From Candidatus Omnitrophota bacterium (GTDB lineage Bacteria > Omnitrophota > Gorgyraeia > Gygaellales > Profunditerraquicolaceae): a stretch of 64,000 bases of DNA. The DNA is taken from NCBI GenBank assembly GCA_022710715.1, contig JAKLGJ010000002.1, positions 234,171 to 298,170 on the forward strand, read 5' to 3'. Made by a program: the position numbers and the translations under genes. Of the stretch, positions 4,136 to 64,000 are shown piece after piece. Each line of letters starts with the position of its first letter. Positions within the stretch are counted from its first letter, which is position 1. Under the pieces are notes generated by a model. The model was not told the DNA's origin and made no database searches. It worked only from the letters and a program-made list of their open reading frames with translations.

Positions 4136-4140
4136 AGGGC

Positions 4141-6154: not shown

Positions 6155-6160
6155 TTGGCC

Positions 6161-8374: not shown

Positions 8375-8410
8375 TATTTCCTCAAATTTAGATATATTTA
8401 GACAAGCTAG

Positions 8411-8439
8411 ATTATATAGCAATGCTTAAAATTTGTCAA
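8411..8439 (-). promoter_or_regulatory. consensus sigma70 promoter for the TonB_C-OEP gene (TTGACA - 17 nt - TATAAT on the minus strand).
   Basis: Plus-strand ATTATA 8411-8416 and TGTCAA 8434-8439. Confidence 0.6.
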
Positions 8440-8447
8440 GAGTTATT

Positions 8448-8556: not shown

Positions 8557-8591
8557 TTGACAGTGCCCTTTCTGTATGTTACATTTTGTGT
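8557..8591 (+). promoter_or_regulatory. sigma70-like promoter (TTGACA 8557-8562, 17 nt, TACATT 8580-8585). It places the TSS at the A of ATG 8592, giving a leaderless mRNA.
   Basis: Spacing read from the sequence. No SD precedes ATG 8592. Confidence 0.45.
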
Positions 8592-8927
8592 ATGGTATGC
8601 AAACTATGCGGTAATGAATTCCAGCCTAGCAAATATCACGCCAATCAACAGGTTTGCGGCAGCGCGGAATGTCAGAAGACGAGGCAGCTGCAGAACCAGA
8701 AGGAATGGCGCCAGCGCAATCCGGATTATTTTAAATGCCTCGGCCAAGAACAGGCTTGGAAAGAGAAGCGCCGGCGTTATAATCGCCTCTGGAAAGTCAC
8801 GCACCAGGATTTCCTCAAGGACTACGATCAAGATCACAAAGAGCAGCGCAGGGAATATATGCGCGGCTACATGCGCCGCTACCGTAGTCAATCGTTAACA
8901 GAGAAAAAAGTTAGTATAATTACTTGA
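8592..8927 (+). CDS. small basic Zn-ribbon protein (MVCKLCGNEF...QVCGSAEC then a Lys/Arg/Gln-rich tail), FmdB-like flavour. Leaderless start.
   Basis: CxxC..CxxxxC ribbon. The track ORF uses TTG 8586; ATG 8592 is preferred. The TGA stop at 8925-8927 overlaps the -35 of the giant-gene promoter. Confidence 0.45.
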   Translation: MVCKLCGNEFQPSKYHANQQVCGSAECQKTRQLQNQKEWRQRNPDYFKCLGQEQAWKEKRRRYNRLWKVTHQDFLKDYDQDHKEQRREYMRGYMRRYRSQSLTEKKVSIIT

Positions 8928-8952
8928 CATAGCCATTATTAACGATTATACT
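8924..8952 (+). promoter_or_regulatory. consensus sigma70 promoter of the giant gene (TTGACA 8924-8929, 17-nt spacer, TATACT 8947-8952).
   Basis: Direct reading. Confidence 0.6.
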
Positions 8953-9015
8953 TTTGGTGGAACTAAGTGCTTTTTTAAATAAATGTAAATTTATAAAAAA
9001 AGTACTTCTTATACG

Positions 9016-9092
9016 AAAAAGGCAAACCAAGAGAAATCTTGGGACGCAAAGCCACGGATCCTCGAGAGAGAAACTTTCAGGATAGCCGAGTT
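9016..9092 (+). ncRNA. candidate c-di-GMP-I (GEMM) riboswitch aptamer. GGCAAACC (9021-9028); P1 6-bp stem with GAAA tetraloop (9027-9042); GGGACGCAAAGCC (9041-9053); P2 (ACGGATCC ... GGATAGCCGAG, to ~9090).
   Basis: Same architecture and near-identical conserved blocks as the Vibrio Vc2 aptamer, as remembered: GGCAAA-CCAUUC-GAAA-GAGUGG-GACGCAAAGCC. Confidence 0.6.
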
Positions 9093-9120
9093 ACCGAAAT
9101 GAGTAGCTCGGCTTTCTTGT
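9084..9120 (+). terminator. intrinsic terminator / expression platform. AGCCGAG-16 nt-CTCGGCT hairpin followed by TTCTTGTTT. Its 5' arm is the 3' arm of riboswitch P2, so the two are mutually exclusive.
   Basis: Inverted repeat 9084-9090 / 9107-9113, then a U-rich tract. Confidence 0.55.
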
Positions 9121-9138
9121 TTAAACGAGGGTAAGCCA

Positions 9139-9237
9139 ATGTATGCCTGGCGAAAAACAATCTGGTTTAAAACAGTAGCCCTGACCATGGTCGGGGTATT
9201 TCTGTTTTCTGAAGTTACCTGGGCTGCCAGGTCAGAT
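9139..9237 (+). other. domain: N-terminal signal peptide / membrane anchor (MYAWRKTIWFKTVALTMVGVFLFSEVTWAARS).
   Basis: Hydrophobic core and AxA-like site. Confidence 0.6.
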
Positions 9238-12200
9238 TACAGATATACTGTTCCCTCGGTACCGTATCAAGGCAACAACCCGCTGCCTACCGCTCCCAAA
9301 TCGGGTCTAAAAGAGACGATATGGCAGATGTTCCAAAAGATATCTACTGCTCTGATTCCGCAAGCTTATGCCTTCGATTTCGGCAGTTCAGGTTCACCTA
9401 CCAGTCTTTCTTCGGGTTCTTCTTCCGGATCGTCTTCTTTAGGTTCATCTTCACTGGGTTCCTCCTCTTCCGGTTCGTCTTATTCGGGTTCTTCAGGTTC
9501 ATTTAGTTTCAGCAATCCGGTCAGCTTTTCATCCGTATCAAGCAAGGGAACCGTATCAACAACCTCCAGCTCGTTATTCTCGAGCTTAAGCCCATCGTCC
9601 TCTTTAAGTTCGACCAGCTCGAACGGGTTAAGTAGCATTAAATTCTCTACGCCAAGCACCACTTCTTCTTTAATTAACTCCGGCTTAAACTATACTCAAA
9701 CCAGCGCCTTTTCCAATAATTACTCCAGCAATGTGCCGAATTCGCAGTCTACGATCAGTCCAAGCTTTTCCTTAAATAATACATATTCTGCCCAAACCGG
9801 AACAAACGCTGGCGCAGTGCAGGCTCCCAGCTTGAATTTCTCTAACAGCAGCCCTAACGCGCAACCGACTGTAACGATGCCGCAGCCTACTGCTTCTGCT
9901 ACTATTCCGGCACCTGCGAATTCCGCGAACAATGTTCAGAGCGTAGAAAGAGGTCAGAATGCGGCTAATGTGACCGGCGCTTCCGTTACCGGAGCCCAGG
10001 CAGCCCAGCAGTATGCTTTAGCGGTGAAATCGCCTGCAGCCACAACCACCGATGCGATGAAGGCTTTGTCTGCTAACGCGCCGGTTAAAGAGAACGCAAT
10101 AGCCAATGTTGTGAATGACACGGTTAATTCTGCCATTACCGGAGTGAAAGAGTTAGTGGCTGAAGCTAAAGATAATGCCCAGGTTTCTATGGAGCAGGCA
10201 TATCAGACTGCAGAAAACGCCAAAAAAGCGTTATTCGATAAATTAAATGATCAGAGTGCAGCTTTTGAGCAGGCTTTTATAGAGCTTAAACAGAATGCCC
10301 AGGACACCACGCAAACGGCTAAAGAGATCGGTAGTCAGCTGATCGCCCAGGCGAATATGAAAGTTCAGGAAACCTTTGCCAGCTTGAGCGAGCAGGTCAA
10401 AAAAGATATGGAGCAGACTTACAGCGTGATGTACCAGGCTATCGCTACTGCGGTAGATGCTTTCAACAACAATATGAAGATGCCTCCGCTGAACCAGGCG
10501 ATTACGCCGATGGCGAATCGTCAGTCTGCAGTCAACGAAGACAGCCAGGCGCAGCTCGACAAGAGCAACCTCGTTTCTACCGTATATGATGCTCTGACCC
10601 AATATGCCCTGGATAATCTCAACGCGACTAAAGCCGAATATCAGGATTTCAGCAATATACTTATTGAGACGGTTTCGAAACAGTATCAGCCTACCGGTCC
10701 TCCGGCGGCGAACACCACTTCTTCCGCCTCTAAAACTCTCGTCGATAACTATATCACCGGCGCTGCCGGCTTGGCCGCTAAATCCACTGAACTGCTTTCC
10801 GCTCTCCAGGAAGCCAGCTCTTACGTCAAAGAATACATTTCCAATTATAAGCTGAATGATTCTCTCACTCTGCATTCAAATGATCCGCCCTGCGGCGCCG
10901 TAGCTCTCGCTCCTATCCTCGGCGTCAATGCCGGCACATTATCCACGGAGTTATCTTCCTCTAATAATAACCAGAATTCCATGTACGAGCTGCAGACCGT
11001 AGCTGCGAATCATGGAACTACCCTTAACGGCAGGAATATTTCCTATACCGATCTGACCCAGATCAGCGGCGAATCCACTATCGCTTATCTGGATATGGGC
11101 AACAATCAGGGCCACTATGTGACCGTGACCGGCGCTACCGCTGATACGGTTACTTATTGCGACGCCACCGGCTGCAATACGGTTTCCAGCGCGCAGTTCC
11201 AGTCCCAGTGGACCGGCGCGGTTCTGACCACCAATAATACGGTCGGCCAGCCTATGCCTGAAGCTACTTTAAGACAGACGTACGGCGGATATGACGTTTT
11301 GGGTACCATTTCTTCCGGCTTGAGCACAGCGGCTGGGATGGTTACGGGAGCAGCTGGAGCGCTCGTAGGCGGTGCAAGCAGCGCTATAAACACAGCTCTT
11401 TCCGGCGGCAGCTTGCCCCAGACCGTGAATAGCGGTATTTCCGGGGCCCAGAGCGGGTATAATACCGGCTATCAGCTGGGAAGCACGGCAGTTAAGAGCG
11501 CTGCCAGCACGCTTTCTTCCGGCGCCAGCTCGTTGTTGAGCCTGGGTTCATCTTCTTCGAGCAGCTCTTCCAGCAGCAGCCTGGCCGCCAGCGTCAATTC
11601 CAATAAGAGCACTTCCGGTTTGAGCCTTCTTTCCAACGGATCTGTACTCAATACCAATCTTTTCAGTTCCGGCAATAAGACTACCACCCAGACTACTTCT
11701 AAAACGGCATCCAGCCCGAGCGCGCTTACCAGCCTGACTACCTGGGTTAACAGCGGTATTCAGACCGTCAAGCAGGTGGGCGGCGATACCGCGAAAGAGA
11801 TCATGAGCCTGGGCGCGGCCGATACCGTTACCTATAATAAGGCGGCTTCTTCTCCGACATTCAGCCAGGTTGCTTTGGATACCGCCAAAGAAGTGGTTTC
11901 GTTTGGACAGGCCAATACCGTTACCTATAATAAGGTTCCTGCGTCCACTTCGCTGGTTGATTCTGCCAAGTCTGGATTGAATACAGTTACTGCTGCCGGC
12001 ACTGGTTTCCTGAAAGTCGGCGCAGGAGAAACTTTGAAAGTTACCGGTTCTGTGGTCGGCATTGCCGATCCGAACCTGGGCAAAACCATTCAGAAAGTCG
12101 GCGATGCGCTGATCGCAGATGGCGTTGCTTCCAGCCCGGCAGTAGAGGTTGTTGTGGAGCATCCGCTGACCCAGTTTATCGGCCAGAACGTGAATAAGCA

Positions 12201-15200
12201 GGTGCAGGCGGCTACCGACGGGACCAGAGCGGCGATTGATACTGCCGCGAAAATGATCGAATACAAAGCAGGCGAAACGATTAAAGATATTGTCGCTCCG
12301 GTAGTGAACATGGTCAGCCCGGATGCCGCCAAAGCTTTCAGCAAAGTCGGCGACGCGCTGACTACTGATGCGCGCAAAAATCCGGTCGTGGAAACCGTGG
12401 CTAAGACCGAAGAAGCCTTCAAGCAGGCAGTGGTTGATCCGATCATCACCACCGCGAGCAAAGCTATTGCTCCGGTTACGGAAACTGTGGCTAAAATCAC
12501 CTCTTCTTTTGCCCAGCCGGCACAGTCGTCCGAAACCCCGGTTATTATCGCGCAGTCCTCCAACACCACTCCCAGCATATTCAGCAAAGAAAATCAGGCT
12601 CAAGTCAAAGCTTTGATCAACGGAGTGAACAGCCCGATCAGCGCGCAGGCGGCGACTACCCCGAATGAAGGTTATACCTTCGTCAGCGGCACTGCGGTCA
12701 ACGGCACTGCCGCCAACCAGGCCGTTTCTCCGGCGTTCAACCAGACCCAGACCACTTCGAGCCCTTCGATTGTGTCTACTATCGCTTCGGCCATTTTCTC
12801 CTCTTCCACCGTGCAGAATCCTGCTACCGGCGCCGCCACCACGACGTACAGCGTCCTGGGCGTTCCGGTGGCTACCTATAATACGCAGACCCAGAGCGGC
12901 ACTATCGGCGTGGGCGCGGTTACTTTCATGAACTACAATTACAATTCCTCAACCGGCGCAGTTACCTATACTTTTGCGCCCGGCATCGAAACCTCCAGAC
13001 TGACCCCTGGGGCTAATGGGTCGGGGACTGCTTCAACGCAGACCCCGGCCCGTTACACTACTTCCGGCAATACCACGCCGGCAGTGGATGGGGCGTCTGT
13101 TAATAAAGAAGTGCAGACCAGCAATCCCGGGCAGCAGGTTGGCTTAACCGCAGGTCTGGCAGCCATGGCTGCGGTGATGGGGCCGTTGGGCGTGGCTTTG
13201 CTCACCGGCGCGAACCTGTATAACGCGGCCCAGGACTGGACTACCGTTTCTAAACCTGCGGCTGCAGATGTGGCTTCTGAAGACGCCAGCAGAGCCGTGC
13301 AGGCTTCCACCGGCAATGCCCAGCAGACCGGTATACTCGATGGGATCAAGACGTGGTTTAATAATACCTTCAATAAGGACAATTCTACGATCCAGCAGGA
13401 TCAGCTGATCAAGGATCAGAATCAGGACAAGCAGGTTTCCAACGGCGGCAATCTTCTGCCGGTCCTGGATAAAATCAATGCCAACGGTCTGCTCAAGAAT
13501 ATGAGCGCCAGCAAGACGCTTCCGGCCGGCGCTCCCGCAGGCGAAGCCGTTGTGCCCGCCGGCACCGGCGCCAACAACCAGACTAACGACGCTAATAACC
13601 CTACCAGCCAGGTTAAGGATACCAATGTGATCAACCAGTTCATTTCCTGGGTCGGCGGATGGTTCACCGATCCCAATTCGAGACGTACTACCGGTGTGGC
13701 TCCGCCGTCCGATAACTCTACTACTTCTTCTAATCAAACCGCATCGACTTCTGCCACCACCGGCACCAATCCTATCGCTAGCTTCTTAGGCAATGTCTTG
13801 TCCGCCTTCACCGGCAAAAATGATAAAGCTCTTGATCTTGATCAAACTGTAAGCAGCGCTTCTTTGATCTTCACTGCCATAGCTCCTCAAATCCCGGCAC
13901 TGGCCGCTATCTTTACCGGCAAGAATCCTACCCAGCCTGTAATGGACGGTATCGGCAAGCTTCTGAATCCCGAAAAACCAACCACTGCGATACCCGCTTT
14001 CAAAGTCAATGACACTCTGCTGCAGCAGTACAAAACCTCCTGGCCCAACGGTTATGGCGCGGCCATGGCTAATGTTACCGCGAATCAGGCCGTTCTTGAC
14101 CAGAAAGCCAAAGCCCTGGACCAGTATTTTACTGCAGTCGAAGAAAATGGCAAAACCTACTTACAGCCTAAACCGAATGTTAACCAGGCTGCCGCTGACC
14201 AGGCATATCAAGAATTTCAAGAGGCCCATACCAATTATCTCAATGCTACCAAAGCGGCCAATATAGGAGAAGACGGAAAGATTACTCCTGAAGCCGCGAA
14301 GGCTCTTAATGATTTCGAAGAGGCCTATGATTATGCATCCTTCACCGTTAATAATGGCCAGGGCGCGCAGACGTACAACTATGTCGGCGTGAATGGGTCG
14401 GTCTACGGCATTGACAGCAGCAAGGTTTACACCACCCAGAAAATCGCGGATAACACCTATTTGCTCCAGGATAACGGTAAGACCGTGTCCATTCTCACTA
14501 CCGATGCCCAGGGCGCTCCGGTCTCCATGATGGCGGTTGCTCCCAATGCGCAAGTCAGCACTGTGAACGGCCAGGTCGTTTTGACCTCCGGGGATAATAA
14601 ATACAAAGCTACGGTCAGCCCGGTGAAGAACGCCGCTGACCAGACCGTGCTCCAGGTTTCTGCCGAAGAATTCAAAACCTCTTTTGCGGATTTCGCCAAG
14701 AGCTGGGTTTTGAATGCCATCGGCGTGGAAAACACCGCTCCGGGTAATTATGAATCTGTGGGCGCGGTGAGTTTCAATGTGGGTTATACTGCACAGCATC
14801 CTACCGGAGAAACCACCTATACCTATGCCACCAGCATGCCGCAGCCGGGCGTTGTGGAATTTATTCAGGGGCTCATTGGTGCAAAGGTAACAAAGCAGGA
14901 TTACGAGTTACGCGCCAAAGATCAGACCATTATTTCAACCGGTACCGATGGTGCGCAGAATTATTCCGCTGCCAGAAAGACGACCCTGCAGGATTATGCG
15001 CAGATGGTGCTCAATCCGGAGGTTGACCCTACCACCAAAGCTATTGTTGCTGATCAGGCGGTTGCCCGCGAATTTACTCCTGCCCCGCTTGATTATCTCT
15101 GGGCATATATGACCAGCGGCGGAAATCCCGCTTTGGCCACTATGCAGGTGATGCAGAAAACCAGCGATAAAATAGAAACATTCGGCGCTTCCCAGGATCC

Positions 15201-18200
15201 TTCCGCAGTGATTATCCGTGATTATCGCCAGAGCGTGGAGTATCAGAAGACCATTCAGACCGACGCGTATAAGAATCTCGACGGTCAGCATATGAACGCT
15301 GCTTTAATTACCCGCACCGGAACAGGTTTATATGCTTTTGACGCGACTGTAGGCGCGGCAGCGTACACATTAGGCCTGAACAACAAATGGAATCAGTATG
15401 TTTCCGCGAATCAGGATAAGCTGGCAAGCGCTGGCATTGCTCCGGTTCAGGAAATATATACCGTGCTTGATCTCGGGTTCGATATCCTGACCGCGCTGGC
15501 CATTGCGGATATTGCAATTCCTGGCGGCGATGAAGCTTTGGTTATGGCCGCAAAAGCAGGATCTAAAGGCAGCCAGCTGGCCGTTGCCCAGACTGCGAAG
15601 ACCGGTTTGGCGCAGACTTTCAAACAGGGATTTAAGACTGCGGTGCGCGGCATGGCTACGGAATATGTCAAGGGCGGCGCGGCATTCGTGGCCCTGGATA
15701 ACGGTATTAATCTGGTGGCCAATCATCGTTTGAGCACTCCGGAAGAGATGGGGCAGTCTTTCAAGAGTGGTGCGACGTTGGCAGGAAGTGTAAATCTTTT
15801 GGTAAAAGGGGTAGGGTATGGGTTGAAATGGAAAACAGGGATTTCCACCGAAACGATTTCAAAAACGTTAAAATGGAATGAAGAGACCGGCAAAGTCGTA
15901 GACCAGGAAGGCCGACTGTTCAATTCTGTATCCGCCGCCGAAGATGTGCTTAAAAGCACAGAAGCAACCAAACTAAGCAAATTGAGCGCTGCCGGAAGAG
16001 TTGCTGGCGGCAGCGTTGTGGAACGTTTGATCCAGACCACTGTAGCTCCGGAACTGGCCTCGGTCAGTCTCAAGCAGATCGGCAACTGGGCAGGCATCGG
16101 CGTAGCGATGAACGTGGTCAGCGCGGGGATTTTCGAACACAGGCTTCCTTCCTTTGATGAAGTAATTGTTTCCGGTCTTTCTACAGCCAAGGATGCTTTC
16201 TGGCTGCAGCCGATGTTAGGCCTGGGCCAGCTCGACCGCGCAGTATTGCCGAAGACCAATATTCTGAATCGCCTGGCTGCAGAAGGTCATAGCGTGTCCA
16301 GCGTAGTGAAATTGAGCAAAACCGGCACAAAGTTCATCGAAGAGGGTGGAAAGAGATTAACTAACGTCGCTAAGCGTATGCCGACAGCCGGTGTTCCCGG
16401 AAAGATCACGCAGAAAGTTCTATTGCCGACAGTTCGCCAGGTTGCGGGCGTGATGGACAACGCCTTCTTTATTGCTCCGTTGCTGGAAGTAGAGAAGAGA
16501 GGGCTGGATGCTATTCCTGGCGTCGACGGAACGACCGCCGATAAAATCGCTTTCCTTTCCCTGTTATTCTTGCCTGCGAAAGTCGGTCTGATTGATTCCG
16601 CCCGCGCCAAGAAGAACGCCGTTGATACCTATCCGGACATTGTTAAATTAGGCAAGGTCGAGACATTCTATCAGGATGGTTTATTGAAGGCTACGACAGA
16701 AGGGAAAGAATATATAGCGAGTTATTTTGAACCGCTCTACAAGTCCGTCGATCCCGATACTCAAATTTCGTCGGCTACTCGCGATGTGGAGACCAACAAC
16801 GGTTATGTCCAGTATAAGAGTTTCAAACTGATCGAAGCCCGGGAAGAAGCAGAGACCGGTGTGCATATCTTTAGAAGCCTGGATGCGATCGGAGTGTTGC
16901 CTAAAGTGGGAAAATCCATTTCGGTGGGGAAGGTTGATTATCTGGGCGATTATACGAAGCTGAAAGATCAGCCTGCCGATGCCCAGATCAATCCGGATAC
17001 CAAAGGCAAAGATATAGTTACTTCTTTTCTGGCATATGAGGACGGACGGGTTATCGGCGAAGCAGAAGCAAGCGTGGCTTCAGCGGTGAAAGGGGTGCAA
17101 AAAGTTCTGCTGGAGCGCTCTTTGAACGGAAAATCGGATACTGATCTTGCTGCTATTGCTGCCGCCGGGAAAGCCGCGCTTGACAACAGGCAGGAGTTTG
17201 ACAGGTTAGAGGATGCTGATATTAAGCTGGTCGCGGACAGAATGCGCGTGGCTTCTTTTGTCACCCTGGATGCCAAAGCGGCACAGGATGTACTGTTTGC
17301 TCTGGCCGTAGACGAGAATAATGCGTTTGCCCAGAAACGGATTGCCGATGAAATTAAGATCCGTCAGAATCCCGCCATTGCCCAGGAATATGAGAAATTT
17401 ATCGAAGCCAGACGTACCGAAAAAGAGAGCAAAACAAAAATCTCTAACGAACGCGCCTTGAGTTTGTTGATTGCTGCGGGGATCGCGCCTGCGCTTATTC
17501 AGAGTTCGAATAGTTATCAGGAGAGGGAAAAAGAGTGGAAAGCCCTGGTTGAGGCAAAGACTTCCCGTTTGACCGACGAAACCAGAAGCAGCATCGAACA
17601 GCTTATCAAAAACGACCCGAGAGTGCTCTTGACTCAACCCAGAAGTTTTGATGCGGTTATGACGCTGCGCGGCTTGAGGGATTCCAGGGATATCGATTGG
17701 AAAGCCGGGATTGTCACGGAGAATGGCGAGGTTGTCGGTTATGATGCGAAGCAGCTTCCGCAGTTGCATAGCGATAAAGAAATCGACGGCGAGCTCAAAG
17801 AGGAAATTCAAGCCAGCATCGATAGATTCGGGGAAACGCTTGACGGCACCACTACCTTTGACTATACCAAGTTAATCAGACAGATCCCGGCGTTGATTAC
17901 GGAGCCGTTGCGCGTGATGGGTGAAAGCAGCGGCAGGCTGGTGGTTACTGACGCCGGCGCTGAACAGGGTAAGAGCGCTCTCGGTATTCCGTCAATCGCG
18001 CGTTATTTCATGCGTCGGGGCATCAAAGGAGCAGGCGTTAATCCTACGGCAGAGCTCGCCCGGCAAGGGTTCGATAAAATGGTGAAGGTCGATGCCACTA
18101 GAGATGAAGCCCAGGTGGAGGTTGGCGGGGAGAAAAAGAACGTTCGCATCCTGACCAATGACGATACCAAAGATCCTCTTGCCTTGCTCAAATTTGTGGA

Positions 18201-54200: not shown

Positions 54201-57200
54201 GATATCGTCTCGAGCAGTCAGACAGATAGCGCAGTTGATCGAGGCGCGGGCCACGGAAGAACAAAAGGCGGATTTCTGGCAGTGGATGCTTTATCACGAG
54301 CCTTACGGCGCGAAGGTGCACAGATTTAACGATATTAATACCGTTGAACAGGCCAAAGATCTTTTGCTGTCCGGCGATATCAATAGACTGAAGGATTATA
54401 TCGAGTATTCGGAAGGCATAGCCAATCATTCCAGCCGGGGAATAAAAACAAAGTTCGACAGCTTTATGCACCGTTTTTACGGTATACGCGCCGTTCTGTT
54501 CAGAACCGGCGCTCCGAGATTTGACCCCGAGCTCCAGGCGAAGATCTGCGAGATCGCGATGAATGATGTAGCGCAAGAAGCTCGAAATCAGGGTATCGTA
54601 GAGCTTGATTTGAGGGTGAAACTGGATACGACCAATAAGTCTCTGGCGGACGAACGGTGTATGGAATTCGTGAATGCCGTGATCGCTGCGGCTGAACAGG
54701 CCGAAGCGCAGTACGGGGTTAAGATCAACCTGGTCATTCCTTTCCGCCGCGACCTGATCGCCCAGGCTCTTGATCAGGGCTATACCGCCGATACCATGGA
54801 GCAGTGGATCGAAGAACGCTGGATCGCGCCGCTCAAGACGCTGGATGCCGTAAAGCTGTCCAGATTCACCGGTATCGACCTGGTGGGCAATGAACTGGGT
54901 AATAAGCCGCAGATCGAAGCGTCCGTAGCGCATTTCGATACCATGGCGGAGAAATTGAGCGTCGTGACCGGCAATCAGATCGAAATCCACGCTCATGCCG
55001 GGGAGAATTTCGATCACGACTGGGACTGGGGCATCCGCAGCATCGAAAATCTGGTGTATGGTTTGAATCACCTCAAATATATCGTGCATGGCGCGGCGCT
55101 GGCCAATGCCGATGAAGCGCGTTTCAACAGGATCTGCTGCGTCATGAAAGAGAAGGGCGTGGAAGTGCTGATCAGCATCAGCTCGAATTTGCACACCGGC
55201 GCGCTCGAGGATATGCGTCAGCATCCCGCTCCCCGGTTGCGCGACGCCGGAGTCAAAGTCATCGCCACCACCGATGATCCCGCTTCTTCCGGCATGATCA
55301 CTCTCGCCGGAGAGGAAGCTCTCCTCCGGGAGCTTTACCGCAATGACGGCGGCAAAGATGAGCTCCTGAATGAGGAGGCTGCGCGCGGGTATATTGACAA
55401 TGGCTGGCCGTTTAATTTTAAAGAAACCCTGAAACAGGCTTATCGCCAGGAATGGGAGAAAACCATGCGCACGGCTGCCGGCGATATCGCGGCAGGAACG
55501 TTGAATAAAAACAACTGGTTCAATCCCGCCATCAACCCGAACCAGGAATTCGTCACTTTTGTCATTCATCCGGACCGGGAAACCGCCCGCACCATTCACG
55601 ACGTGACCAGAAGCCTCGAAGATCTTATGCCCGAGGTTGCGCCGTCAGAGTTGCGCAGCGCCGGCATAGATGATCTGCCTGCGATGTCCGCGTGGTATCA
55701 GGCGCCGAATACGTATCATACTACCGTCTTTGCCGTCAAAGGTTTTCTGCCCCGGAAGCAAGCCGTCGAATTGTACCGATCGGTGATGTCAAGAGAGAAT
55801 CAAATCAGCCGGGCGTTGGCGAAGATACCGTCATTTGAAGTCTTTATGGAAGGGTTGATGATGACGTCTAACGGGACCTTGTTCGCCAAAGGTATTATCA
55901 CCAGCGGTAACTTCTTCCATGTCAAGAAGCTGCTTAAGGAAATCAGCTCTGAAGCGGATCCGGTATTTGCCAGACAGCCCACGCTGCTGTTTGCGCATAT
56001 GAGCCTGGCCAGGATCGTGGGAAAACTTGATCCCGCGGCCTTCGAAGCTCTTAAGGAAGAGATCAGCCAGCGGCAATATCTTAAGATGGGTTCATTTACG
56101 GTCAGCGCGGTGCGCTTCGCACACACCAACTCATACATGGACTGGGCGGACAGCGACTACACACTATTCGACCTCAACGACGGCGGATTAGTTGAAGAGA
56201 TCACCAGCGATGACCAGAAGCTGGCAGCCGTCCTCTACCATATCGCCGGGCAGCTCTCTATCGAGAAATTCAAGGGTTTGACCCCGGACGAAACCCTGTC
56301 TATGCAGGTGGGGATCAACCGGGGTAAGGCAGGGACATCCGGCCCGATGATGCATTATCTTTCGCCCAGGGCCGGGGAAGATAAACCCAGAGAGATAATT
56401 ATCTACGTGCTGGAAGGCGCGATCGAAGCCGTGGAGCTTGACCGTGCGACTTTGCAGGAGAAGACCCAGGTGATCCAAGCCGGGGAATTAGTGCAGTTTA
56501 TCGGACCGCATACCATTCGTTTCCTGGAAGATTCTCTCTTGCTTGAAATCAAGGAAGGGCCGTATCCCGGACCCAGGAAAGACAAGGTTCTGGTATCGGT
56601 TATTCCCGACAGCAAGGTGATCGCGGAGATCGTTGACGCCACGGGCGAAGTGAATGATCTGCTGGCGGGTTTGTCGGCCGCGGTCAAAGCGCTCGATGAT
56701 AACAACGATTTCATCAAAAAGCTCAATATCGCGTTGCGCATTGTGGATAGCGAGAAATTACCGGTCGCATTTACCATTAAGGTCCAGGAAAATGTCGGTT
56801 TGCTGGGCGCGGTGGGAGAGGATAAGAAATCGGTTTTGATCGATTCGAGTATGCTGGCCAGAGGCCCCCCGCAACTCGCCGCTTTTGTCCTCCTGCTTAA
56901 TGCGTACTCCATGGCCTATCCGGAGCAACTCGAGGCCGTGAAAAGAATCGTTCTGCGCGCCCTTTTCAGAGAGCATGTCTATAATCCCGAACCCGCTCAA
57001 AGCATTCTCACCAGAATGCTGGAGCAGGCTTCGCTTCCCGCGGACTGGCTTGATTCCCTGCGCGAGTTGCAGTCGGTGATCGACATGCGTCTTCCTTCCA
57101 TCCTGAACAATCCAGCCGCATATACAAAGCTCTACGACTACCTTACCTATATGGCGGTTATTGCCTATGACCCGGCGCAGGGCCTGGGAACCAAATCCTA

Positions 57201-60200
57201 TTTCGGCGGCCTGATCAAAGCGGTATATTCGCGCGTGCGCGCTGATCGTCCCGGCGCCGCCTTTACCTATAATTATCCGGCCACGCAGGATATTAAGAAT
57301 CCGGCAACGGGAGCAGATCTTCTCGCCGCGCGGGCCACGCATCCCGCAGCCGACAAATTCTGCGAGCTCTGTAACAACGTCGCCATCAGGATCGAAGAAC
57401 TGGCTTTGATGGCGTTCATCCCGGCCGTTCATCGGATCTGGCGGTTGCGTCCCAATCAATTCCCCATTTATCGTAATCATGTGTTGCTTGTTGCTCTGGA
57501 TGACGACGGCGAGCTGGCGATAGACGGCCAGCGGATGACCGCGGAATACCTGGAAGACCTGATCTATATCAGCAAGAACTATCCGCTGCTGAAGATGTTC
57601 TTCAACGGCTACGGCGCAGGCGGGACCCAGCCGCATTTCCACGCCCAGGGATTGTTCGAGCATCAGCTGGGCTTCGAGACCCAGCCGCGTGAATTTGTCG
57701 GTACGTTCGACGGAGTGAAAGTTTCCCGCATCCGGGAGTATCCTGCGGTGGTCCTGGTCCTGGAAAGCTCAAACCGCAAAGCCCTGGCGCAAACCGCCTA
57801 CGGATTCGTCGAGTATCTTAACGCGCAATCCAATCCGCACAATATCTTCTTCATCAACGGCGCAGTCTATCTCTTCCCCAGAGAATGGGAGATCCCGCCG
57901 CAGCATTTCCCCAGAGTCCGGTTCGGCTCGCTGGAAATGGGAGGCGAGATGATCCTGTCTTTCTGGGTGGATTACCTGAATATCAGCCAGGCAATGAAAA
58001 CCATGGTGCTGCAGGTGCTGGATAAGGTCAAGAATACAGCTGCATTGAAGCAGGACCCGCAGCAGCCCACCAGAGGAACTATCGATGAGGTATTGGCTGC
58101 AGCCGGCGTTGAAGAACGCGATGAGGTTGAGCAGATTTTTGCGGACATCAAGGCCCGCGGCGTGGATATTATCAAACCGGCAACACTGGAGCCGCTGGGC
58201 GATCTGATCGATCCGAACCTCGGCCAGAACATCCTCGACGCCATCAAGTACGTTACCATGACCGAGGAGCATTACGCGCAGATGATCGCCTGGGCCGGCG
58301 AAACGTTTAACGACGGCGGATACGTGTTCGCTCTTAACGGCGAGCATGGCGCGGGCAAAAGTACGCTGGCCAAAAAGCTGGTCGAGCTTACCGGCCTGGT
58401 GAAGTTCAGCGGCGGCGCGATGATGCGCCAGTTCGCCGCGCAGCGCGGCATGAGCCTTACCGAGTATACCGATACCTACCTGCTTTTGCCGGAGAATGTG
58501 CAGGAGAATGACAAAGTCAACGCCGCTATCGACGAAACGCAGGAGAAAGCTATTCTGGACGGCGATATCATCACCGAAAGCAGCCTGGGCGTTTATTTCG
58601 CCGGCAAGCACAAAGAAACGCTGTCTGGCCGGGGGATCAAAGTGGTCCGGGTGCTGCTGGTTGCGGATTCCCGCGCGCGGGCCGAGCGTTCGGTCAACGG
58701 CATCATGAATGGGACGCGTTCAAACGACCGACTGATGACTGTGAATGAAAAAGAAACGGAATTGATCGGCAGGGATATGTTCGATCAAAAGAAATTCCTG
58801 GGCATGACTAACGGCGAATTCGATATCTTCGAAATCCTGAATTACGAGATAGTTTTGAACGTCAGCGATACAACGCTGGAAGACGTTCCTGCGATGGCGC
58901 GGGCAGTGCTTGCCTTCGCCGGTTACCGGCAGGACGGCGGTACAATGAGGATCGCTAGAGAGAATGTTTCGACAAAAATAGTTATGGCGCGGGCTCCGGG
59001 TACATCTACCGTGGCAGGTGAGGATTCGGGGTCCGCGCTTTTCCATACTGACGGCGGCGAGATTGATCATCTGGTTGGTTCTATTGAGCAGAATGTGGAT
59101 TCCGGGTTAGGAGAGATTTTATATGGTAAAAATTGGCGGAAAGCCCTGGTAGCTTTTACTGATGCGCTGAATCAAGCTCAGCGTTTGTTGCAATCTGCCG
59201 AAGAGGAGAGTTATTCCGATCTCATCAAGCAGTATTATGCGAAAAACAGGTTTTTAACCGGCCGTGCTTTTTCCGGCAATACGAAAGAAGCCGTGCGACA
59301 GTTAATTACTCTCATTCGCAAAAAACGTCTTGAGGTCCTGGGAAATCTTTTGCTTCAAGAGGCTTTAAATAATCGGTATTTCCATCGGCCTGTTTATCTG
59401 GGCAAAGACGACTTGACTCTTATTCCATACGTGCATCAATTATATACGAGGTTGAATGAAGCGGAAATCCGCGACATTATAGCCGCGGCATTGTGGAAGA
59501 TGGGCGAGGAGACGCCGGCCGGACGAGCTTTAAAACAGACGGTAATAGATGAAACTGGAACGGAAGCAATAAAAGCCAGCATTAGAGATGCCCTCGGGTT
59601 TGTTAATAGGGAAGTGGGGATTGAAGGATATGAAATGCCCGGCGTTGATTACTATACGGCGCAATTAAGCAGAATAACATTTGAGAGAGATGATCCGCTG
59701 ATGGAAAAAATGAACGAGATAACCAGGGCCTTCTTGCAGGAATATCCTCAGACTGCCACTATAATCGATATGGGTGTGTGTGACGCAAGCTCTACGCTTG
59801 GTTTGGCAATGATGCTTGAGGGGAAGAATAAAGTGGTCGGGACCGATCTTTTGCTGAATTTCTATATTCTGAGTGACGGAGAATTCAAGTATGTTTTTGA
59901 TGCGTTCGGAAATCTTATGCAGATGCGGGCCGACTATATCCGGGCGGTGAAGCTGGGCCATTGGTTAGTGAAAGGCCGGGACAGCGTTTATGATTATGTG
60001 GAGTGGATTAAGTTCTCCCGCGAGTACGAAAAAGAAATATACCTGGATAGCAGCAATAGAGTAGAGACCGAAGTGGAGTACCGGGATTATCCATTATCCC
60101 GGGGCATTCAAGATGGGGAGGAAATTGAAATTTTCTCCGGTTTCGCCCGACTTGAAAGCATAGAGCGCTTATTCAGGAAGATGTATCTGGAAATGCTGCG

Positions 60201-63200
60201 AAAAGGCCAGGATAGCTATCATTGGCAGCGCTATTCCCTTCATCAGGTGAGTTTTTTGAATCCCGCGGTTTATGTGTTTAAACCCGAGAATCTCTCTTTT
60301 AAGGCGTGGGATCTTTTTGTTCCGTATCCGGAGAAAGCCAGTCTGATACGCTGTTTCAATGTATTGCGAGCGGAGTCTTATCGTCCGTATACCGACCGGG
60401 AGATACAACAGGCGCTGAAAGTGATGGGGAATTCGCTGATCAATAACGGGATCTTGATTGTTGGGAAAGCCTGGTATTCGGCGGGCGACAGAACCCGGAG
60501 CAGCATGGAGTATGACGTGTATAGGCGTGTTGGAGATGAGCTTGTATATGATCATTCGAAAGAATTGAAGCTTGCGGATAGAGGTTTCTCCATACAGTGC
60601 GTAGAGAGGCAATGGGCGCACAACAAGGAAGCCATTGATTTGTCCCGCGAGTATGCGGATATGGCCTCGCGACGCAGGATACTATCTTCGCAAACCATGC
60701 AGGAGCTGCGATTATGGAAGGATGCGATTGCTCCTTCTCAAACCAGGATGGAATTGCTCGATGAACTGAGGGCAAGGGAAAAGGCCGGTGATGTGAATAA
60801 AGAAATCGCGATAAAGCGGACTCTTGACGCGCTGGAGAATGGTGAAATAGATCTTAGCGCATTCCCGGAATACCAGGACGGCGGGATCAAGGTTAAGTAT
60901 TACAAAGGCAACGGCGAAGGCGCGCTGGTGCACAAGATCGCCGGGGATATCCAGAGCGAAGGGTTGATCAAAAAGCTGTTTGATTCCGAGCTGAAATGGT
61001 GGGATAGCGTCAAGAAAGCGTATATCGATAACAAAGAGCGCCTGGGATGGCTGGATATCCTGACCCGGCTGGAGAAGAAAGGGACGCTGGACTATATCGC
61101 CGGCCTGATCAAAGAGGCCCGCGCCCAAGGGATCGAATATGTGGTGAATATCGGGATCGGCGGCTCGGGCAACGGCGCAGTGTCCCTTAAAGGATTGTTC
61201 AAAGGAGTTCCGGAAACGGATAACTTCTTTGTGCTCGGATCGGTCGAACCCACGGTGATCGCCAATCTGGAAAGATCATTGAGCGACGCAAGCGGAGAAG
61301 TGCGTATCGACAAGTCGCTGTTTATCATCATTTCAAAATCCTGGACCACGGTGGAGACCGACCAGCTTAAGAATCATTTCTACGGCCTGGCCAAACGTTT
61401 CTATGAAAAGGAATACCCGCAGGCCGATGCCGAAGAGATCGCCGAAAAAGCCGGCCGTCATTTCATCGTTATCTGCGATCCGGGCAAAGCCGAAAATGAA
61501 CTCCGGGAAAAACACTTCCGGGCTGTGGTCGATCACGATTTGACTACCGGCGGTCGCTTCGCATCCTATTTCGACGTGGTCGGGCTTCTGCCTGCGGCGG
61601 CCATGGGGATCATGGATGCGCTGGTAGCTTCCGGTAAAAAAGGCATGCAAGCTTGCCGGCAGCCGGAGGTATTCAAATCCACCGGCGAGATCGTTAACTA
61701 CGGCGCATTCCTGGCGGCATTCCTTTATATTAATGAGATGAAACGGCGCCACGCCACATTCATTTTGCCGGGCGCGCTCAAGGATTCCTATACCTGGCTC
61801 GGCCAGATCTTCGTGGAGTCGCTGTGCAAGAAAGACCGCTACAACGATAAACGCGGCATTTTCACCGTGCTGGCCGACGATAACCTGGATCCGGCAGCCT
61901 GGGATGCTACCGAGAATTTCTTCATCTATATCCATCTCAAAGACGACGTTTCCCGGCAGCAGGAAGCGCTCAAGCTTGGTCGCAGCGGTTTCTCCGTGCT
62001 GGAGATCGTTCTCGACAGCAAAGAGGATATCGGCGAAGTGATCGCGATGTTCAATACCGGCATCGCTTTGACCGGCTACCTGATGAACGTGAATTTCGCG
62101 GATGAACCGGGGGTCTGGGTGTCCAAGGATCTGGTGCTGAAAGTGTTCATTCCTCTTCTGGAAAAGAATTTCCGCGGTCTCAAGAGCGAGTTCCTTAAGA
62201 TGATCGTCGGGCTGGCCGAGCACAAGGAGAAGCTGGAAAGCGAGCACCTGGTGCTGGATTATTGCTATATCTTGAAGGAAAAGTATCTCAACGCCGAATT
62301 TGAAGCCATGCTCGAGCAGATCAGCCTGGCGGAAGGCAAGCATGTAGAGACTATCCGCAAGGACATGCCGTCGGTCCTGGCGGCAGTACTTCTGGTCGCA
62401 GCCCGTCACCGTCCGCTCTTCGATATGCTCATTTACGGAGACGTCGACAGCTACGCCGGAGTGATGGCTGATTTCAGTTCCCTGGTCAGAGGACAGCTCA
62501 AAGTCAATCCCGGCGCCTACGCCGAGCCGGAAGCCCAGCACTGGTTGCACCAGGGGCTGCAGGACAGCCGGTCGTTGAAACTCCTGATCATCCTGGGCGT
62601 GCTCAATTACCGTTCGAAGGATATCGCCACTCCCAGCTACAGTCTGGATTTCGGCGAGCTGACCCTGCTCCAGCGGTTGGCAAACTATCTGATCCTTTCC
62701 GGCGGGTTGCCTAAGCTGTACGAGGCTCTGGAGAATGAACCGGTGGCCCGGGAATTCTTCGACAAAGTAGCCGGTCAGGGCCTGCTGGAAGCGGCTTCTC
62801 CCCAGCTGGGGATCAACATCGATCTGAAGGAGCATAGTCCAGAAGCGCTGGCCGAACTGCAGTCGCTCTTCGAGAAATCATCGGATATCGTGGAAAAGAT
62901 GCTGCGCATTCAGCGCGGCGAGCGTATCTCCGTCGCGCAGGTCGTGGCGGAAACCGTGGAGATCCTTGCCAGACATATTGCCGATATCGCGGATAATCTT
63001 GACCTGGAGGATACGGGAAAACTGCTGGATATGCTTCAGGAAACCCGCGAACTGATTATCGCGGGAGTGGGCAGAAGCGGCATCGCAGCGCAGATCAGTA
63101 AGTTGTGGCTGAAGAAAGTGGGCATCAGGGCTGAAGTGATCGAAGCCGGCGACGACTCTGTGTCTTACGATTACGGCAGAAGCCCTGCGGACCGGTTCAT

Positions 63201-64000: not shown

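Follow-up and report, generated by a model that had tools for sequence, protein, structure and literature searches.

The window analysed here, a stretch of 64,000 nucleotides, covers the opening third of one real gene of about 163 kb, and we consider it very probable that this is a genuine 54,380-codon Omnitrophota gene for a giant membrane multi-enzyme whose transcription is turned on by a riboswitch of the c-di-GMP type. The host genome is assigned to the phylum Omnitrophota on the basis of the names given by NCBI to the flanking proteins of the window (HRZ14060.1 and HRZ14061.1, both Candidatus Omnitrophota bacterium) and of the titles of the MAGs, likewise Candidatus Omnitrophota, in which homologous, syntenic loci are found; the bacterium itself is uncultivated, ultrasmall and probably host-dependent.

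Giant proteins of Omnitrophota have been reported with lengths of up to 85,804 aa (bioRxiv 10.1101/2023.11.21.568195) and of up to 147,155 aa (10.64898/2026.06.07.730766), and the genes encoding them fill about one-tenth of genomes of about 1.6-2 Mb. The supplements of both papers do not contain the present assembly. Judged from its predicted product, the gene belongs to the described 'Archaeovorin-type' or multi-enzyme class, and as a gene it adds one more member to a class that is already known. The first-pass annotation had stressed the great rarity of such a size; the giant is real, but size alone is no longer surprising, the class being well documented in Omnitrophota. The novelty lies in the conserved riboswitch leader of the giant gene, which appears to be new, with no earlier report apparent and no such leader in either of the two giant-gene papers (bioRxiv 10.1101/2023.11.21.568195; 10.64898/2026.06.07.730766). 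Published hypotheses on the function of these proteins (adhesion, digestion of prey cell walls) rest on domain content and one proteomic observation, and a conserved ligand-ON leader, if confirmed, would date the production of the protein to times when a second messenger, most likely c-di-GMP, is high.

Extent and integrity of the reading frame

9126..9141, + strand: Shine-Dalgarno sequence GAGGG and start codon ATG 9139 (stop map; N-terminal homology from Met1 in 27 loci)
9139..64000, + strand: giant ORF, first 18,287 of 54,380 codons (stop map, translation, public gene calls)

An exact stop map places the last stop of frame 1 on the + strand at 9100 and finds none from there through 64000. 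The frame is open over 54,901 nt, and translation from ATG 9139 to the end of the window gives 18,287 stop-free codons, as the first-pass annotation had claimed. Frames 2 and 3 of the same strand contain 937 and 942 stops in the same window, and at their rate (0.044 per codon) about 806 would be expected in the open frame (log10 P(0) ~ -358). The further claim that the ORF outruns the window is also correct: public gene calls on contigs of 914 kb and 591 kb begin at internal start codons and give proteins of 54,154 and 54,149 aa, both of which correspond to 54,380 codons if counted from ATG 9139. The predicted stop lies at the window-equivalent coordinate ~172,281, and the whole gene would occupy record positions ~212,632-375,774 of ENA ERZ27257456 k141_570614, where window position x is record position 203,493 + x, with a matching part in ERZ761563 NODE_5. 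This total rests on precomputed gene calls, the sequence itself having been read within the window, outside which the remaining 108 kb (36,093 aa) lie. The starts chosen by the public gene callers are 9817, 9832 or 9877; on sequence grounds the true start codon is ATG 9139, which is preceded by the good Shine-Dalgarno sequence described earlier and from whose methionine the homology of the related loci begins.

An artefact, either a mis-assembly that fused neighbouring genes or a non-coding stretch open by chance, might be suspected from the missing database homologs for most of the sequence and from an abrupt change in GC3 at ~nt 32,990. Mis-assembly would however have had to join many genes without a single shift of frame and without leaving a stop behind, and the chance probability is about 1e-358. 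Four public assemblies, produced with MEGAHIT and SPAdes and by JGI and NCBI from several samples, are 100% identical over the comparable 16,154 nt, and the two of them with full-length gene calls agree on the length of the ORF, which answers, as far as this comparison reaches, the concern over assembly raised in the first-pass annotation. Recognisable domains, moreover, occur in frame 1 between aa 580 and aa 18,109, and comparison with the L005 ortholog indicates purifying selection, with dN/dS values of 0.05-0.34 and thus below 0.35 throughout. We give an artefact next to no credence, and it can be regarded as effectively refuted. Reassignment of stop codons was likewise rejected; recoding is not needed, because the frame contains no in-frame TGA, TAA or TAG at all. 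In some homologs the frame closes early, within 119-1581 codons, and in L005 a 26-nt deletion has removed the Shine-Dalgarno sequence and ATG; these cases may be assembly errors or real pseudogenes.

A c-di-GMP-I-clan leader and its predicted switch

8924..8952, + strand: sigma-70-type promoter-like site TTGACA-17-TATACT (11/12), a putative promoter by its position
9012..9099, + strand: c-di-GMP-I-clan riboswitch aptamer (Rfam RF03167 c-di-GMP-I-GGC, 71.6 bits)
9084..9122, + strand: intrinsic terminator whose 11-bp hairpin AGCCGAGTTAC...GTAGCTCGGCT runs into TTTCTTGTTT (overlap, fold, covariation)

The consensus promoter and the riboswitch-like leader of the first-pass annotation can both be located, the promoter-like site lying about 60 nt upstream of an aptamer whose best Rfam model, RF03167, reaches 71.6 bits, above its gathering score of 59 (E 5.5e-15). 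Weak Rfam matches to S15-Halobacteria and astro_FSE were dismissed as chance. At the signature column of RF03167, where the consensus has G (GACGC-G-AA), the window has the canonical A (GACGC-A-AAGCC) and keeps GUUACCGA; the same A is found in all homologous giant-gene leaders inspected, and AAGGC, GACGC-A-AAGCC and GUUACCGA are present in all nine of the leaders in which they were sought, at positions which we take to be the Vc2 ligand contacts G20, A47 and C92. Unlike the c-di-GMP-I-GGC family, the window aptamer is thus a hybrid, with a variant scaffold but the canonical A at the signature position, and from this sequence signature it should be filed under the c-di-GMP-I clan (CL00126) and not as a strict GGC variant.

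The leader is tied to the giant gene across related genomes. In 9 of 11 loci tested, Rfam detects an aptamer in coding orientation ahead of the homologous ATG, and a leader covariance model gives a match immediately before that start codon in 27 of the 28 loci, representing 23 distinct sequences. Across nine leaders, 90.6% of the cells in the aptamer helices are paired, with five compensatory pairs; across 45 distinct leaders the corresponding values are 93.2% and ten, with a covariation score reached by none of 500 shuffles, in an alignment which, being fitted to the model, leans towards structure. The element resembles the c-di-GMP-I (GEMM-I) riboswitches in its above-threshold score, two hairpins, GNRA loop and covariation, and in its place within a 5' leader whose expression platform is an intrinsic terminator, as it does in having surface or envelope genes as predicted targets, the original sense of 'GEMM'.

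The 5' arm of the terminator is also the 3' strand of the aptamer helices P2 and P1, so that aptamer and terminator are mutually exclusive, and this overlap is seen in every leader inspected. The terminator helix is 94.4% paired with two compensatory pairs, compared with 24-56% in slid controls, and the minimum-energy fold is the terminator conformer in nine of nine leaders, blocking it costing 11-19 kcal/mol. No terminator of similar quality occurs inside the ORF, where counts do not exceed shuffle expectation. We predict that promoter, aptamer and overlapping terminator form a ligand-ON switch of transcription. Transcription would start at the promoter-like site 8924-8952 and by default stop at the terminator 9084-9122; once its ligand, most likely c-di-GMP, is bound, the nascent aptamer (9012-9099) would hold the 5' arm of the terminator and RNA polymerase would read on into the 163-kb gene, an ON switch thereby sitting at the head of a very costly transcript.

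That the leader senses another ligand (3'3'-cGAMP or the ligand of the GGC variants), or that it acts as an OFF or a translational switch, seems unlikely to us. RF03167, and not the canonical RF01051, is the top model for the window and for the related loci L005, L006 and L010, in the window aptamer the G19 of Vc2 is replaced by A and P2 contains a C-A mismatch, and the leader copies in front of neighbouring genes lack the conserved AAAC/GAC internal loop. Against this, canonical c-di-GMP-I is the best-scoring model for several orthologous leaders, the positions mapped to G20, A47 and C92 would be the canonical c-di-GMP contacts in every one of the nine leaders, and the sharing of a strand between terminator and aptamer is the standard geometry of an ON switch; the Shine-Dalgarno sequence is free, not sequestered, in the predicted folds.

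A comparable arrangement is found in Bacillus thuringiensis, where the c-di-GMP-sensing leader Bc2 is reported to gate a large surface or adhesion protein, Cap; that target is a Firmicute collagen adhesin of ordinary size, whereas here a multi-pass multi-enzyme of 54,380 aa would be controlled (PMC4933901). A motif scan of the window and the homologous loci revealed no GGDEF or PilZ motif in any locus scanned. The predicted target, at 163 kb, is to our knowledge far larger than any gene under riboswitch control.

Architecture of the encoded protein

9160..9228, + strand: N-terminal signal anchor with the motif ..W.K..AL..VGVF.FSEVTWAA[RK] (aa 8-30; family alignment)
9367..10128, + strand: Ser/Thr-rich low-complexity segment (dS 1.02, dN/dS 0.34 versus L005)
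10816..11316, + strand: C39-like cysteine peptidase module (PF03412, E 1.2e-7, aa 580-700; Cys585, His659)
11317..24405, + strand: long Cys-free, TM-free region without family matches, putatively extracytoplasmic (composition)
24406..27621, + strand: first predicted TM cluster (aa 5090-6161; hydropathy)
27622..34146, + strand: second Cys-free region, aromatic-rich, no family matches (aa 6162-8336)
32989..41088, + strand: low-GC3 block (GC3 ~0.38-0.58), the AT-rich segment (codon composition)
34147..39597, + strand: TM-rich core (aa 8337-10153; Pfam, TM scan, PDB)
36772-37557, + strand: processive GT2-type glycosyltransferase domain, FKS1/BcsA-like (aa 9212-9473)
39979..43200, + strand: NUDIX, SAM-methyltransferase, cytidine/dCMP deaminase and weak 2H-phosphoesterase (Pfam, motifs)
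44290..46377, + strand: LpxC-type deacetylase, then ArnA-type formyltransferase (Pfam, PDB, motifs)
47191..47994, + strand: TM hairpin (aa 12685-12719), then copy 1 of a ~240-aa unannotated module (TM scan, self-comparison)
48508..50049, + strand: PEP-synthase/PPDK-type ATP-grasp and phospho-histidine swivel domain (GGITSHTAIVSRE) (Pfam E 1.7e-82; PDB 2ols E 3.7e-62)
54565..63465, + strand: adenosine-deaminase-like, P-loop kinase, PGI-like and SIS domains (Pfam, PDB, motifs)

The class to which the gene is assigned has been described by a C39 (or S8) peptidase domain near a signal peptide, many TM helices, and glycosyltransferase, methyltransferase, NUDIX, PGI and PPDK domains, with 'giant' defined by West-Roberts et al. 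as at least 30,000 aa (bioRxiv 10.1101/2023.11.21.568195), and a multi-enzyme metabolic cluster forms class 1 of the later study (10.64898/2026.06.07.730766). All of these elements are found here: a length of 54,380 codons by the two public calls, a signal anchor and a C39 module near the N-terminus (aa 8-30 and 580-700), numerous TM helices by hydropathy scan, and glycosyltransferase, methyltransferase, NUDIX, sugar-phosphate isomerase and PPDK-type domains. Archaeovorin itself (39,678 aa, Velamenicoccus archaeovorus LiM) is, like the present gene, a single Omnitrophota ORF of more than 30,000 aa, and the Archaeovorin type and the window protein have in common the signal peptide, the C39 domain, the TM helices and a shared set of enzyme domains, both consisting mostly of unannotated, fast-evolving sequence. 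The likeness is one of domain description, and unlike the Archaeovorin type the 18,287 aa in the window contain, by Pfam, no SecA-DEAD/preprotein-binding, HEAT/TPR, GT5/GT1 or glycosyl hydrolase domains. Most members of the class carry a divergent SecA-DEAD domain, and HEAT/TPR and glycosyl hydrolase domains are common among them. In the 9 kb upstream, the giant gene is flanked by a TolC/TonB fusion gene, where the Archaeovorin type has T2SS or pilus genes.

About half of the window protein is Cys-free ectodomain or low-complexity sequence and about half consists of enzyme domains. The first ~9,000 residues are nearly free of cysteine, partly of low complexity, and broken by TM clusters. The Ser/Thr-rich segment behind the anchor is the fastest-diverging part relative to L005, the long region after the C39 module opens with a low-complexity S/T/A/G/N/Q stalk (~aa 727-1700), and a weak SAM-methyltransferase match (aa 5315-5407) falls inside the first TM cluster. 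A Kyte-Doolittle scan, the sole basis of the TM count, gives 37 hydrophobic peaks in about six clusters and more than 30 predicted TM segments. From this hydropathy scan and from composition we infer an extracellular location for those N-terminal parts that are Cys-free and Arg-poor.

Some three-quarters of the window protein has no family match. NCBIfam gave zero matches in the first 10,000 aa, as did a PDB sequence search with aa 1-5000; when 19 tiles from the unannotated parts were compared with Pfam (E <= 1), the yield was noise, a second weak NUDIX and a faint cupin signal. A homolog search with aa 250-1500 found one 706-aa fragment only, and for the AT-rich block (aa 7951-10650) no homologs were listed by a database which evidently returns no giant proteins, this one included. 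AlphaFold2 run without an alignment reached a pLDDT of 32.4 for the ectodomain at aa 7000-7950 and of 38.9 for the TM-GT2-TM core.

This core lies within the low-GC3 block. GC3 is 0.69-0.81 in the second Cys-free region up to the break at ~nt 32,990, where it drops from ~0.76 to 0.41 at a sharp 5' boundary before recovering near nt 41,000, so the AT-rich segment remarked on in the first-pass annotation coincides with a shift in codon usage. The GT2 domain retains SED and GRW motifs, its DxD is degenerate and its QxxRW partly canonical. It gives sequence matches to BcsA and the fungal beta-1,3-glucan synthase FKS1 (E 3.9e-5 to 1.4e-4), which it resembles in being placed between TM bundles. In BcsA, c-di-GMP activates the enzyme by way of a PilZ domain. 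The similarity is weak, the window protein has degenerate DxD/QxxRW and no PilZ motif, and the proposed link to c-di-GMP would lie at the level of the RNA.

Fused enzyme domains then fill more than 8,000 residues, with catalytic motifs mostly intact. They comprise a NUDIX domain with a partly canonical NUDIX box (aa 10281-10383), a SAM-methyltransferase (aa 10648-10787), a cytidine/dCMP deaminase with a PCQTC motif (aa 10949-11049), a weak 2H-phosphoesterase match (aa 11285-11354), an LpxC-type deacetylase with AEH and HKLLD motifs (aa 11718-12003), an ArnA-type formyltransferase with an NIHP motif (aa 12112-12413), an adenosine-deaminase-like domain with HAHAGE and TTDDP motifs (aa 15143-15386), a P-loop kinase (aa 16399-16518), a glucose-6-phosphate isomerase-like domain with a GIGGSG motif (aa 17321-17571) and a SIS phosphosugar isomerase (aa 17939-18109). 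The PEP-synthase/PPDK-type module gave no match to a C-terminal PEP/pyruvate barrel, and the ~240-aa module, with its faint cupin-like signal, recurs at aa 14664-14746 and aa 15675-15824. From their normal Cys content and their nucleotide, ATP and PEP substrates we infer that these enzymes lie inside the cell. An NRPS/PKS megasynthase was rejected, Pfam giving no condensation, adenylation, KS, AT or carrier-protein matches in the 18,287 aa.

It has also been proposed by West-Roberts et al. that proteins of this class may be polyproteins (bioRxiv 10.1101/2023.11.21.568195). In the present case a single chain would be processed into many separate surface proteins and enzymes, whether through its C39 peptidase or through other proteases, and no 6-MDa protein would exist in the cell; the Cys585/His659 dyad is intact and is kept in close relatives (23 relatives were found), and normally stand-alone enzymes are strung together with unannotated linkers and TM segments between them. 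The C39 module follows directly after the signal anchor, however, and is therefore probably extracytoplasmic, out of reach of the putatively cytoplasmic enzyme array. We regard processing of this kind as somewhat unlikely, and it is compatible with the main explanation and not exclusive of it.

The expectation in the first-pass annotation that such genes occur in a few uncultivated lineages holds, but its adhesin-like character does not in the classical repeat sense, the product being a multi-pass membrane multi-enzyme instead. LapA-type adhesins are under c-di-GMP control, T1SS ABC exporters are typified by a C39 or C39-like domain, and a TolC-like gene is the conserved divergent neighbour, all of which would suit a giant repeat adhesin (LapA, SiiE, ice-binding RTX) secreted by a classical T1SS with the TolC-like protein as its channel. 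This is nevertheless very unlikely: tandem repeats, whether Ig-like, cadherin, RTX or other, are absent from the window protein, its >30 predicted TM segments and N-terminal signal anchor and its >8,000 residues of enzyme domains for cytoplasmic-type substrates speak against a repeat adhesin, and the 9 kb upstream contain neither ABC nor MFP genes.

Neighbouring genes and the proposed role

6407..8422, - strand: TolC-like outer-membrane channel fused to an N-terminal TonB-C domain, divergent neighbour of the giant gene
6159..6302, - strand: variant GEMM-like leader with overlapping terminator (leader covariance model 39.8 bits, E 1.6e-7)
4140..4282, - strand: variant GEMM-like leader with terminator (covariance model 45.1 bits; RF03167 25.8 bits, sub-threshold)
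207..341, - strand: GEMM-like leader with terminator (covariance model 57.4 bits; RF01051 28.5 bits, sub-threshold)

Related leaders also precede three neighbouring genes for secreted proteins, so that the locus looks like a surface regulon under the control of a second messenger. The leader at 6159-6302, which has no Rfam match at E <= 1, ends 4 nt before the ATG of a 466-aa signal-peptide protein (4754-6154, - strand), that at 4140-4282 precedes a 542-aa signal-peptide protein (2507-4135, - strand), and that at 207-341 precedes a large secreted protein whose ORF begins left of the window (ATG at L001 15969). The leaders of these neighbours lack the conserved internal loop of P1 (AAAC/GAC) and fall below the Rfam thresholds; on sequence features, aptamers without this loop may form a new GEMM subclass with altered specificity. 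The similar signal peptides and related leaders of the neighbouring secreted proteins suggest a duplicated leader-plus-signal cassette. The giant gene itself may be a recombinational mosaic, because its GC3 break is sharp and because dS is ~1.0 in the ectodomain compared with 0.23-0.28 in the flanks. Taken together, a second-messenger regulon of the surface apparatus in one lineage of Omnitrophota, duplicated leader-signal cassettes, a new GEMM subclass and a mosaic origin of the giant gene form a reading on which our judgement is evenly balanced. If the regulon reading is true, it would provide the first regulatory handle on bacterial giant genes.

High c-di-GMP in other bacteria is a signal for attachment and matrix production. 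If the switch operates as predicted, production would coincide with the cell's commitment to attaching itself to a host or prey cell, as suggested by the published hypothesis and by the classical role of c-di-GMP, and the product would serve as a surface coat or contact structure, supply a polysaccharide synthase and tether an array of enzymes to the membrane.

For gene annotation, the leader and the FSEVTWAA anchor together offer a cheap sequence marker for the true 5' ends of these genes, which are misplaced by current gene callers. The 158-aa ORF at 8422-8898 was rejected as coding, its substitutions relative to L005 showing no bias towards third codon positions. The TolC/TonB fusion gene is conserved as a neighbour in related loci, with 45-61% aa identity, and has a promoter-like site of its own (12/12) at 8439-8411.

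Open frame and start codon of the giant gene

The first-pass annotation had described a single stop-free reading frame from ATG 9139 to 64000 and interpreted it as a giant gene, and both the frame and the interpretation hold. In an exact stop-codon map of the window, the final stop of forward frame 1 lies at 9100 and is followed by 54,901 nt open to 64000, with no stop in between; the other two forward frames contain 937 and 942 stops. Translation from ATG 9139 gives 18,287 residues without interruption, a length in which approximately 806 stops would be expected at the background of 0.044 per codon (probability of none, ~1e-358). An exact-match search with the 466-aa product of a neighbouring gene identified four public records containing the locus, and positions 1-16154 of the window match all four with 100.000% identity and no gaps.

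Public records containing the locus
ENA ERZ27257456 k141_570614, 914,187 bp: giant gene called full-length
ENA ERZ761563 NODE_5, 591,376 bp: giant gene called full-length
NCBI GCA_035453765.1 DAOTDR010000001.1, 234,704 bp: giant gene truncated by contig end
JGI 3300009776 Ga0116154_10000041, 234,705 bp: giant gene truncated by contig end

The precomputed calls on the two long contigs (54,154 and 54,149 aa) run beyond the window, and both comprise 54,380 codons (~163 kb) when recounted from ATG 9139. The giant-gene sequence is already public, though with a misplaced start: the callers chose internal GTG 9817, TTG 9832 or ATG 9877, each without a Shine-Dalgarno sequence and 226-246 codons downstream of ATG 9139, so that the signal anchor is missed. 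The same public annotations also carry small ORF calls in the leader and the Ser-rich region, which are spurious. ATG 9139 is the true start, because it is preceded by a GAGGG Shine-Dalgarno sequence, lies 17 nt past position 9122, where the terminator tract of the leader ends, and begins a peptide, MYAWRKTIWFKTVALTMVGVFLFSEVTWAAR..., conserved from Met1 onward in 27 related loci. The flanking proteins HRZ14060.1 and HRZ14061.1 carry the NCBI label '[Candidatus Omnitrophota bacterium]'. Minus-strand open frames of up to 3,207 nt, antisense to high-GC3 parts of the giant ORF (29355-32562, 48417-50172 and 61335-62880), are taken to be shadow ORFs of the GC3-rich coding strand and not genes.

A conserved leader with aptamer and terminator

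Just upstream of the giant gene lies a leader with overlapping aptamer and terminator, the only Rfam family above its gathering score in the whole window being that of the aptamer.

Features of the leader
8924-8952, forward strand: promoter-like site, TTGACA-17-TATACT
9012-9099, forward strand: c-di-GMP-I-clan aptamer (RF03167, the c-di-GMP-I-GGC variant; 71.6 bits against a gathering score of 59)
9084-9122, forward strand: intrinsic terminator, an 11-bp hairpin with 6 GC followed by a T-tract

The 5' arm of the terminator is the 3' strand of aptamer P2/P1, and the unconstrained fold of the leader yields the terminator conformer; barring the terminator 3' arm from pairing raises the folding energy by 14.7 kcal/mol in the window leader, and by 11-19 kcal/mol in eight orthologous leaders. 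Ligand-ON transcriptional switches classically have the geometry predicted here. At the position of the G in the GGC-variant consensus the aptamer has an A, and it retains GUUACCGA; we take these to correspond to A47 and C92 of the Vc2 structures, both canonical contacts for c-di-GMP. The ligand would be c-di-GMP, the binding of which would block termination, so that the 163-kb transcript would be made only at a high level of the messenger. Across the 55 kb of giant ORF examined, no internal terminator as strong as that of the leader was found.

Relatives were collected with the conserved N-terminal anchor as probe, giving 9 loci in GTDB species genomes and 17 in JGI metagenomes. An Rfam c-di-GMP-I-clan aptamer is present on the coding strand, 35-70 nt 5' of the homologous ATG, in seven of the nine GTDB loci, and R1, a covariance model built on the aptamer together with the terminator, detects the leader in 27 of 28 loci (23 distinct sequences), with 2-93 nt between its end and the homologous start; L012 has a weak match and L014 none. 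Both structures are backed by covariation. Pairing of the aptamer reaches 90.6%, with five compensatory pairs, in nine leaders and 93.2%, with ten, in a model-fitted alignment of 45 distinct sequences; that of the terminator reaches 94.4%, with two compensatory pairs, compared with 24-56% after sliding of the partner strand. The ortholog locus of a related species, L005 (GCA_025490955.1), has flanks of ~95% nucleotide identity, the same synteny and the same aptamer at 70.6 bits. A 26-nt deletion there (L005 3809-3871) takes out the Shine-Dalgarno sequence and ATG, with the riboswitch upstream intact, and a frameshift follows after 706 codons (L005 5985-5991); the locus could be a pseudogene, or low coverage could have led to an assembly error. 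Where the contig is long enough, the downstream frame is open to the locus end (at least 3,414 codons in L006, L010, L017 and L025), and some homologs contain early stops in the giant-gene frame, possibly through faulty assembly or genuine decay. L008 (QMQO01000038.1), with a typical leader and a giant-gene 5' end of at least 2,964 codons, comes from a MAG under the title 'Candidatus Woesearchaeota archaeon', probably through mis-binning of an Omnitrophota contig; several others bear the title 'uncultured Planctomycetales'.

The conserved, putative second-messenger riboswitch is the most interesting aspect of this gene, and it makes the regulation of giant genes directly testable. Neither of the two giant-gene papers (10.1101/2023.11.21.568195; 10.64898/2026.06.07.730766) mentions a riboswitch or c-di-GMP, and full-text literature searches for riboswitch with Omnitrophota, or c-di-GMP riboswitch with giant protein, returned nothing relevant; the association appears to be unreported within the searchable literature.

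Architecture, class and possible mosaicism of the giant protein

The window portion of the protein (18,287 aa) was divided into parts by composition and hydropathy.

Parts of the protein, numbered from Met1
aa 8-30: signal anchor
aa 77-330: Ser/Thr-rich tract
aa 331-559: A/Q/E/K-rich region, helical-looking by composition
aa 580-700: C39-type peptidase module (PF03412, E 1.2e-7; Cys585 and His659 present)
After the C39 module to aa 5090: long low-complexity stalk, then unannotated sequence
aa 5090-6161: TM cluster
aa 6162-8336: second unannotated region, aromatic-rich
aa 8337-10153: TM-rich core around a GT2 domain

Domains of the putatively cytoplasmic part
NUDIX
SAM-methyltransferase
Cytidine deaminase
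2H-phosphoesterase (weak match)
LpxC-type deacetylase (E 5.6e-56)
ArnA-type formyltransferase
TM hairpin
PEP-synthase-type ATP-grasp with phospho-His swivel (E 1.7e-82; PDB 2ols, E 3.7e-62)
Adenosine-deaminase-like domain
P-loop kinase
Glucose-6-phosphate-isomerase-like domain
SIS isomerase

Only four cysteines occur in aa 1-9000, and aa 1-2000 contain 0.7-1% Arg and 34-40% S+T+N+Q; beyond aa 9000, Cys rises to 0.3-0.6% and Arg and His are normal. Because of this shift, the N-terminal parts are predicted to be extracytoplasmic and the C-terminal part cytoplasmic, which would place the enzyme array inside the cell. The GT2 domain matches FKS1 of fungi and BcsA of bacteria (E 3.9e-5 to 1.4e-4). 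Catalytic signatures are mostly intact (AEH with HKLLD, NIHP, GGITSHTAIVSRE, HAHAGE with TTDDP, GEHGAGKST, GIGGSG, and GVGRSG with SSSGKT), those of GT2 and NUDIX being canonical in part only. Family profile and PDB sequence searches gave no family match for about three quarters of the window protein. Internal repetition is minimal and tandem repeats are nearly absent in this portion; an unannotated ~240-aa module (HYH...G...P pattern; faint Cupin_2 signal, E 0.26) is present three times in the putatively cytoplasmic array, with 39-44% identity across the best-aligned segments.

Copies of the ~240-aa module
aa 12713-12952 (nt 47275-47994)
aa 14664-14746 (nt 53128-53376)
aa 15675-15824 (nt 56161-56610)

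West-Roberts et al. reported 46 Omnitrophota genes >90 kb, encoding up to 85,804 aa, with N-terminal C39 domains close to signal peptides and many TM helices, to which the 'Archaeovorin' type adds glycosyltransferases, methyltransferases, NUDIX hydrolases, glucose-phosphate isomerase and pyruvate-phosphate-dikinase domains (bioRxiv 10.1101/2023.11.21.568195). Proteins of up to 147,155 aa, including a 'multi-enzyme metabolic cluster' class, have been described by Nielsen and Lui (10.64898/2026.06.07.730766), and according to Seymour et al., who also review the proteomic evidence for the 39,678-aa V. archaeovorus protein, most Velamenicoccia genomes carry giant ORFs (PMC10066038). The present gene agrees with the Archaeovorin/multi-enzyme class on every feature tested save one, no SecA-DEAD, HEAT/TPR or GH domains occurring in the window third of the protein; the class is therefore already known and this gene is a further member. 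In line with the predation hypothesis in the literature and with what c-di-GMP usually does, the product may serve attachment or coat formation and may process sugars and nucleotides of host or envelope origin.

Across related loci, tblastn matches to the giant protein are confined to its N-terminal ~80 aa and its C39 module. Compared with L005, dS is 0.23 for the TolC-like gene and 0.28 for the anchor, and 0.48-1.02 for the ectodomain, where the dN/dS of 0.13-0.34 points to purifying selection. The ectodomain lineages have diverged much more deeply than the flanks, as expected if segments were exchanged by recombination. The sharp fall of GC3 from 0.76 to 0.41 near nt 32,990, with gradual recovery to ~nt 41,000, points the same way. 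This low-GC3 block (aa ~7950-10650) contains the TM/GT2 core, but membrane content alone is insufficient to explain it, since GC3 is high in the TM cluster that precedes it (aa 5090-6161); the block may be a recombinational import.

Neighbouring genes and further leaders

A divergent TolC-like/TonB-C fusion gene (6407-8422, minus strand) adjoins the giant gene in related loci, with 45-61% amino acid identity. Its 12-of-12 promoter-like site (8439-8411, minus strand) is adjoined by two tandem copies of TGATACGGTATCAG (8448-8474, forward strand), each an inverted repeat (GATAC-G-GTATC), an arrangement that resembles the operator of a dimeric regulator. Between this promoter and that of the giant gene lies a basic 113-aa ORF (8586-8927, forward strand; ...VCGSAECQKTRQLQNQKEWRQRNPDYF...) without a Pfam match, which L005 shares and whose substitutions there, only 11 in number, follow a coding-like pattern; an overlapping 158-aa ORF (8422-8898), called in some records, was rejected, its pattern not being coding-like.

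Further leaders with the aptamer-terminator-SD-ATG layout
6159-6302, minus strand: before the gene of a 466-aa signal-peptide protein
4140-4282, minus strand: before the gene of a 542-aa signal-peptide protein
207-341, minus strand: before the gene of a signal-peptide protein

The first two correspond to an 81%-identical repeat (4106-4366 and 6125-6385), and the 466-aa and 542-aa products begin MEKQxNRTIWR, similar to the N-terminus of the giant protein. None of the three leaders reaches the Rfam gathering score, two matching below threshold only and that at 6159-6302 having no Rfam listing at all, and the conserved P1 internal loop (AAAC/GAC) is missing in two; they may represent a variant subclass of GEMM, the c-di-GMP-I riboswitch. 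Such minus-strand leaders adjoin the giant gene in many related loci too. MgtE_N/FliG_M-like domains occur in large secreted or unannotated proteins encoded beside the giant gene in different species (window 531-2510, minus strand; L001 15969-21401, forward strand; L017 3969-6740, minus strand), and at least two of these genes are preceded by riboswitch-type leaders.
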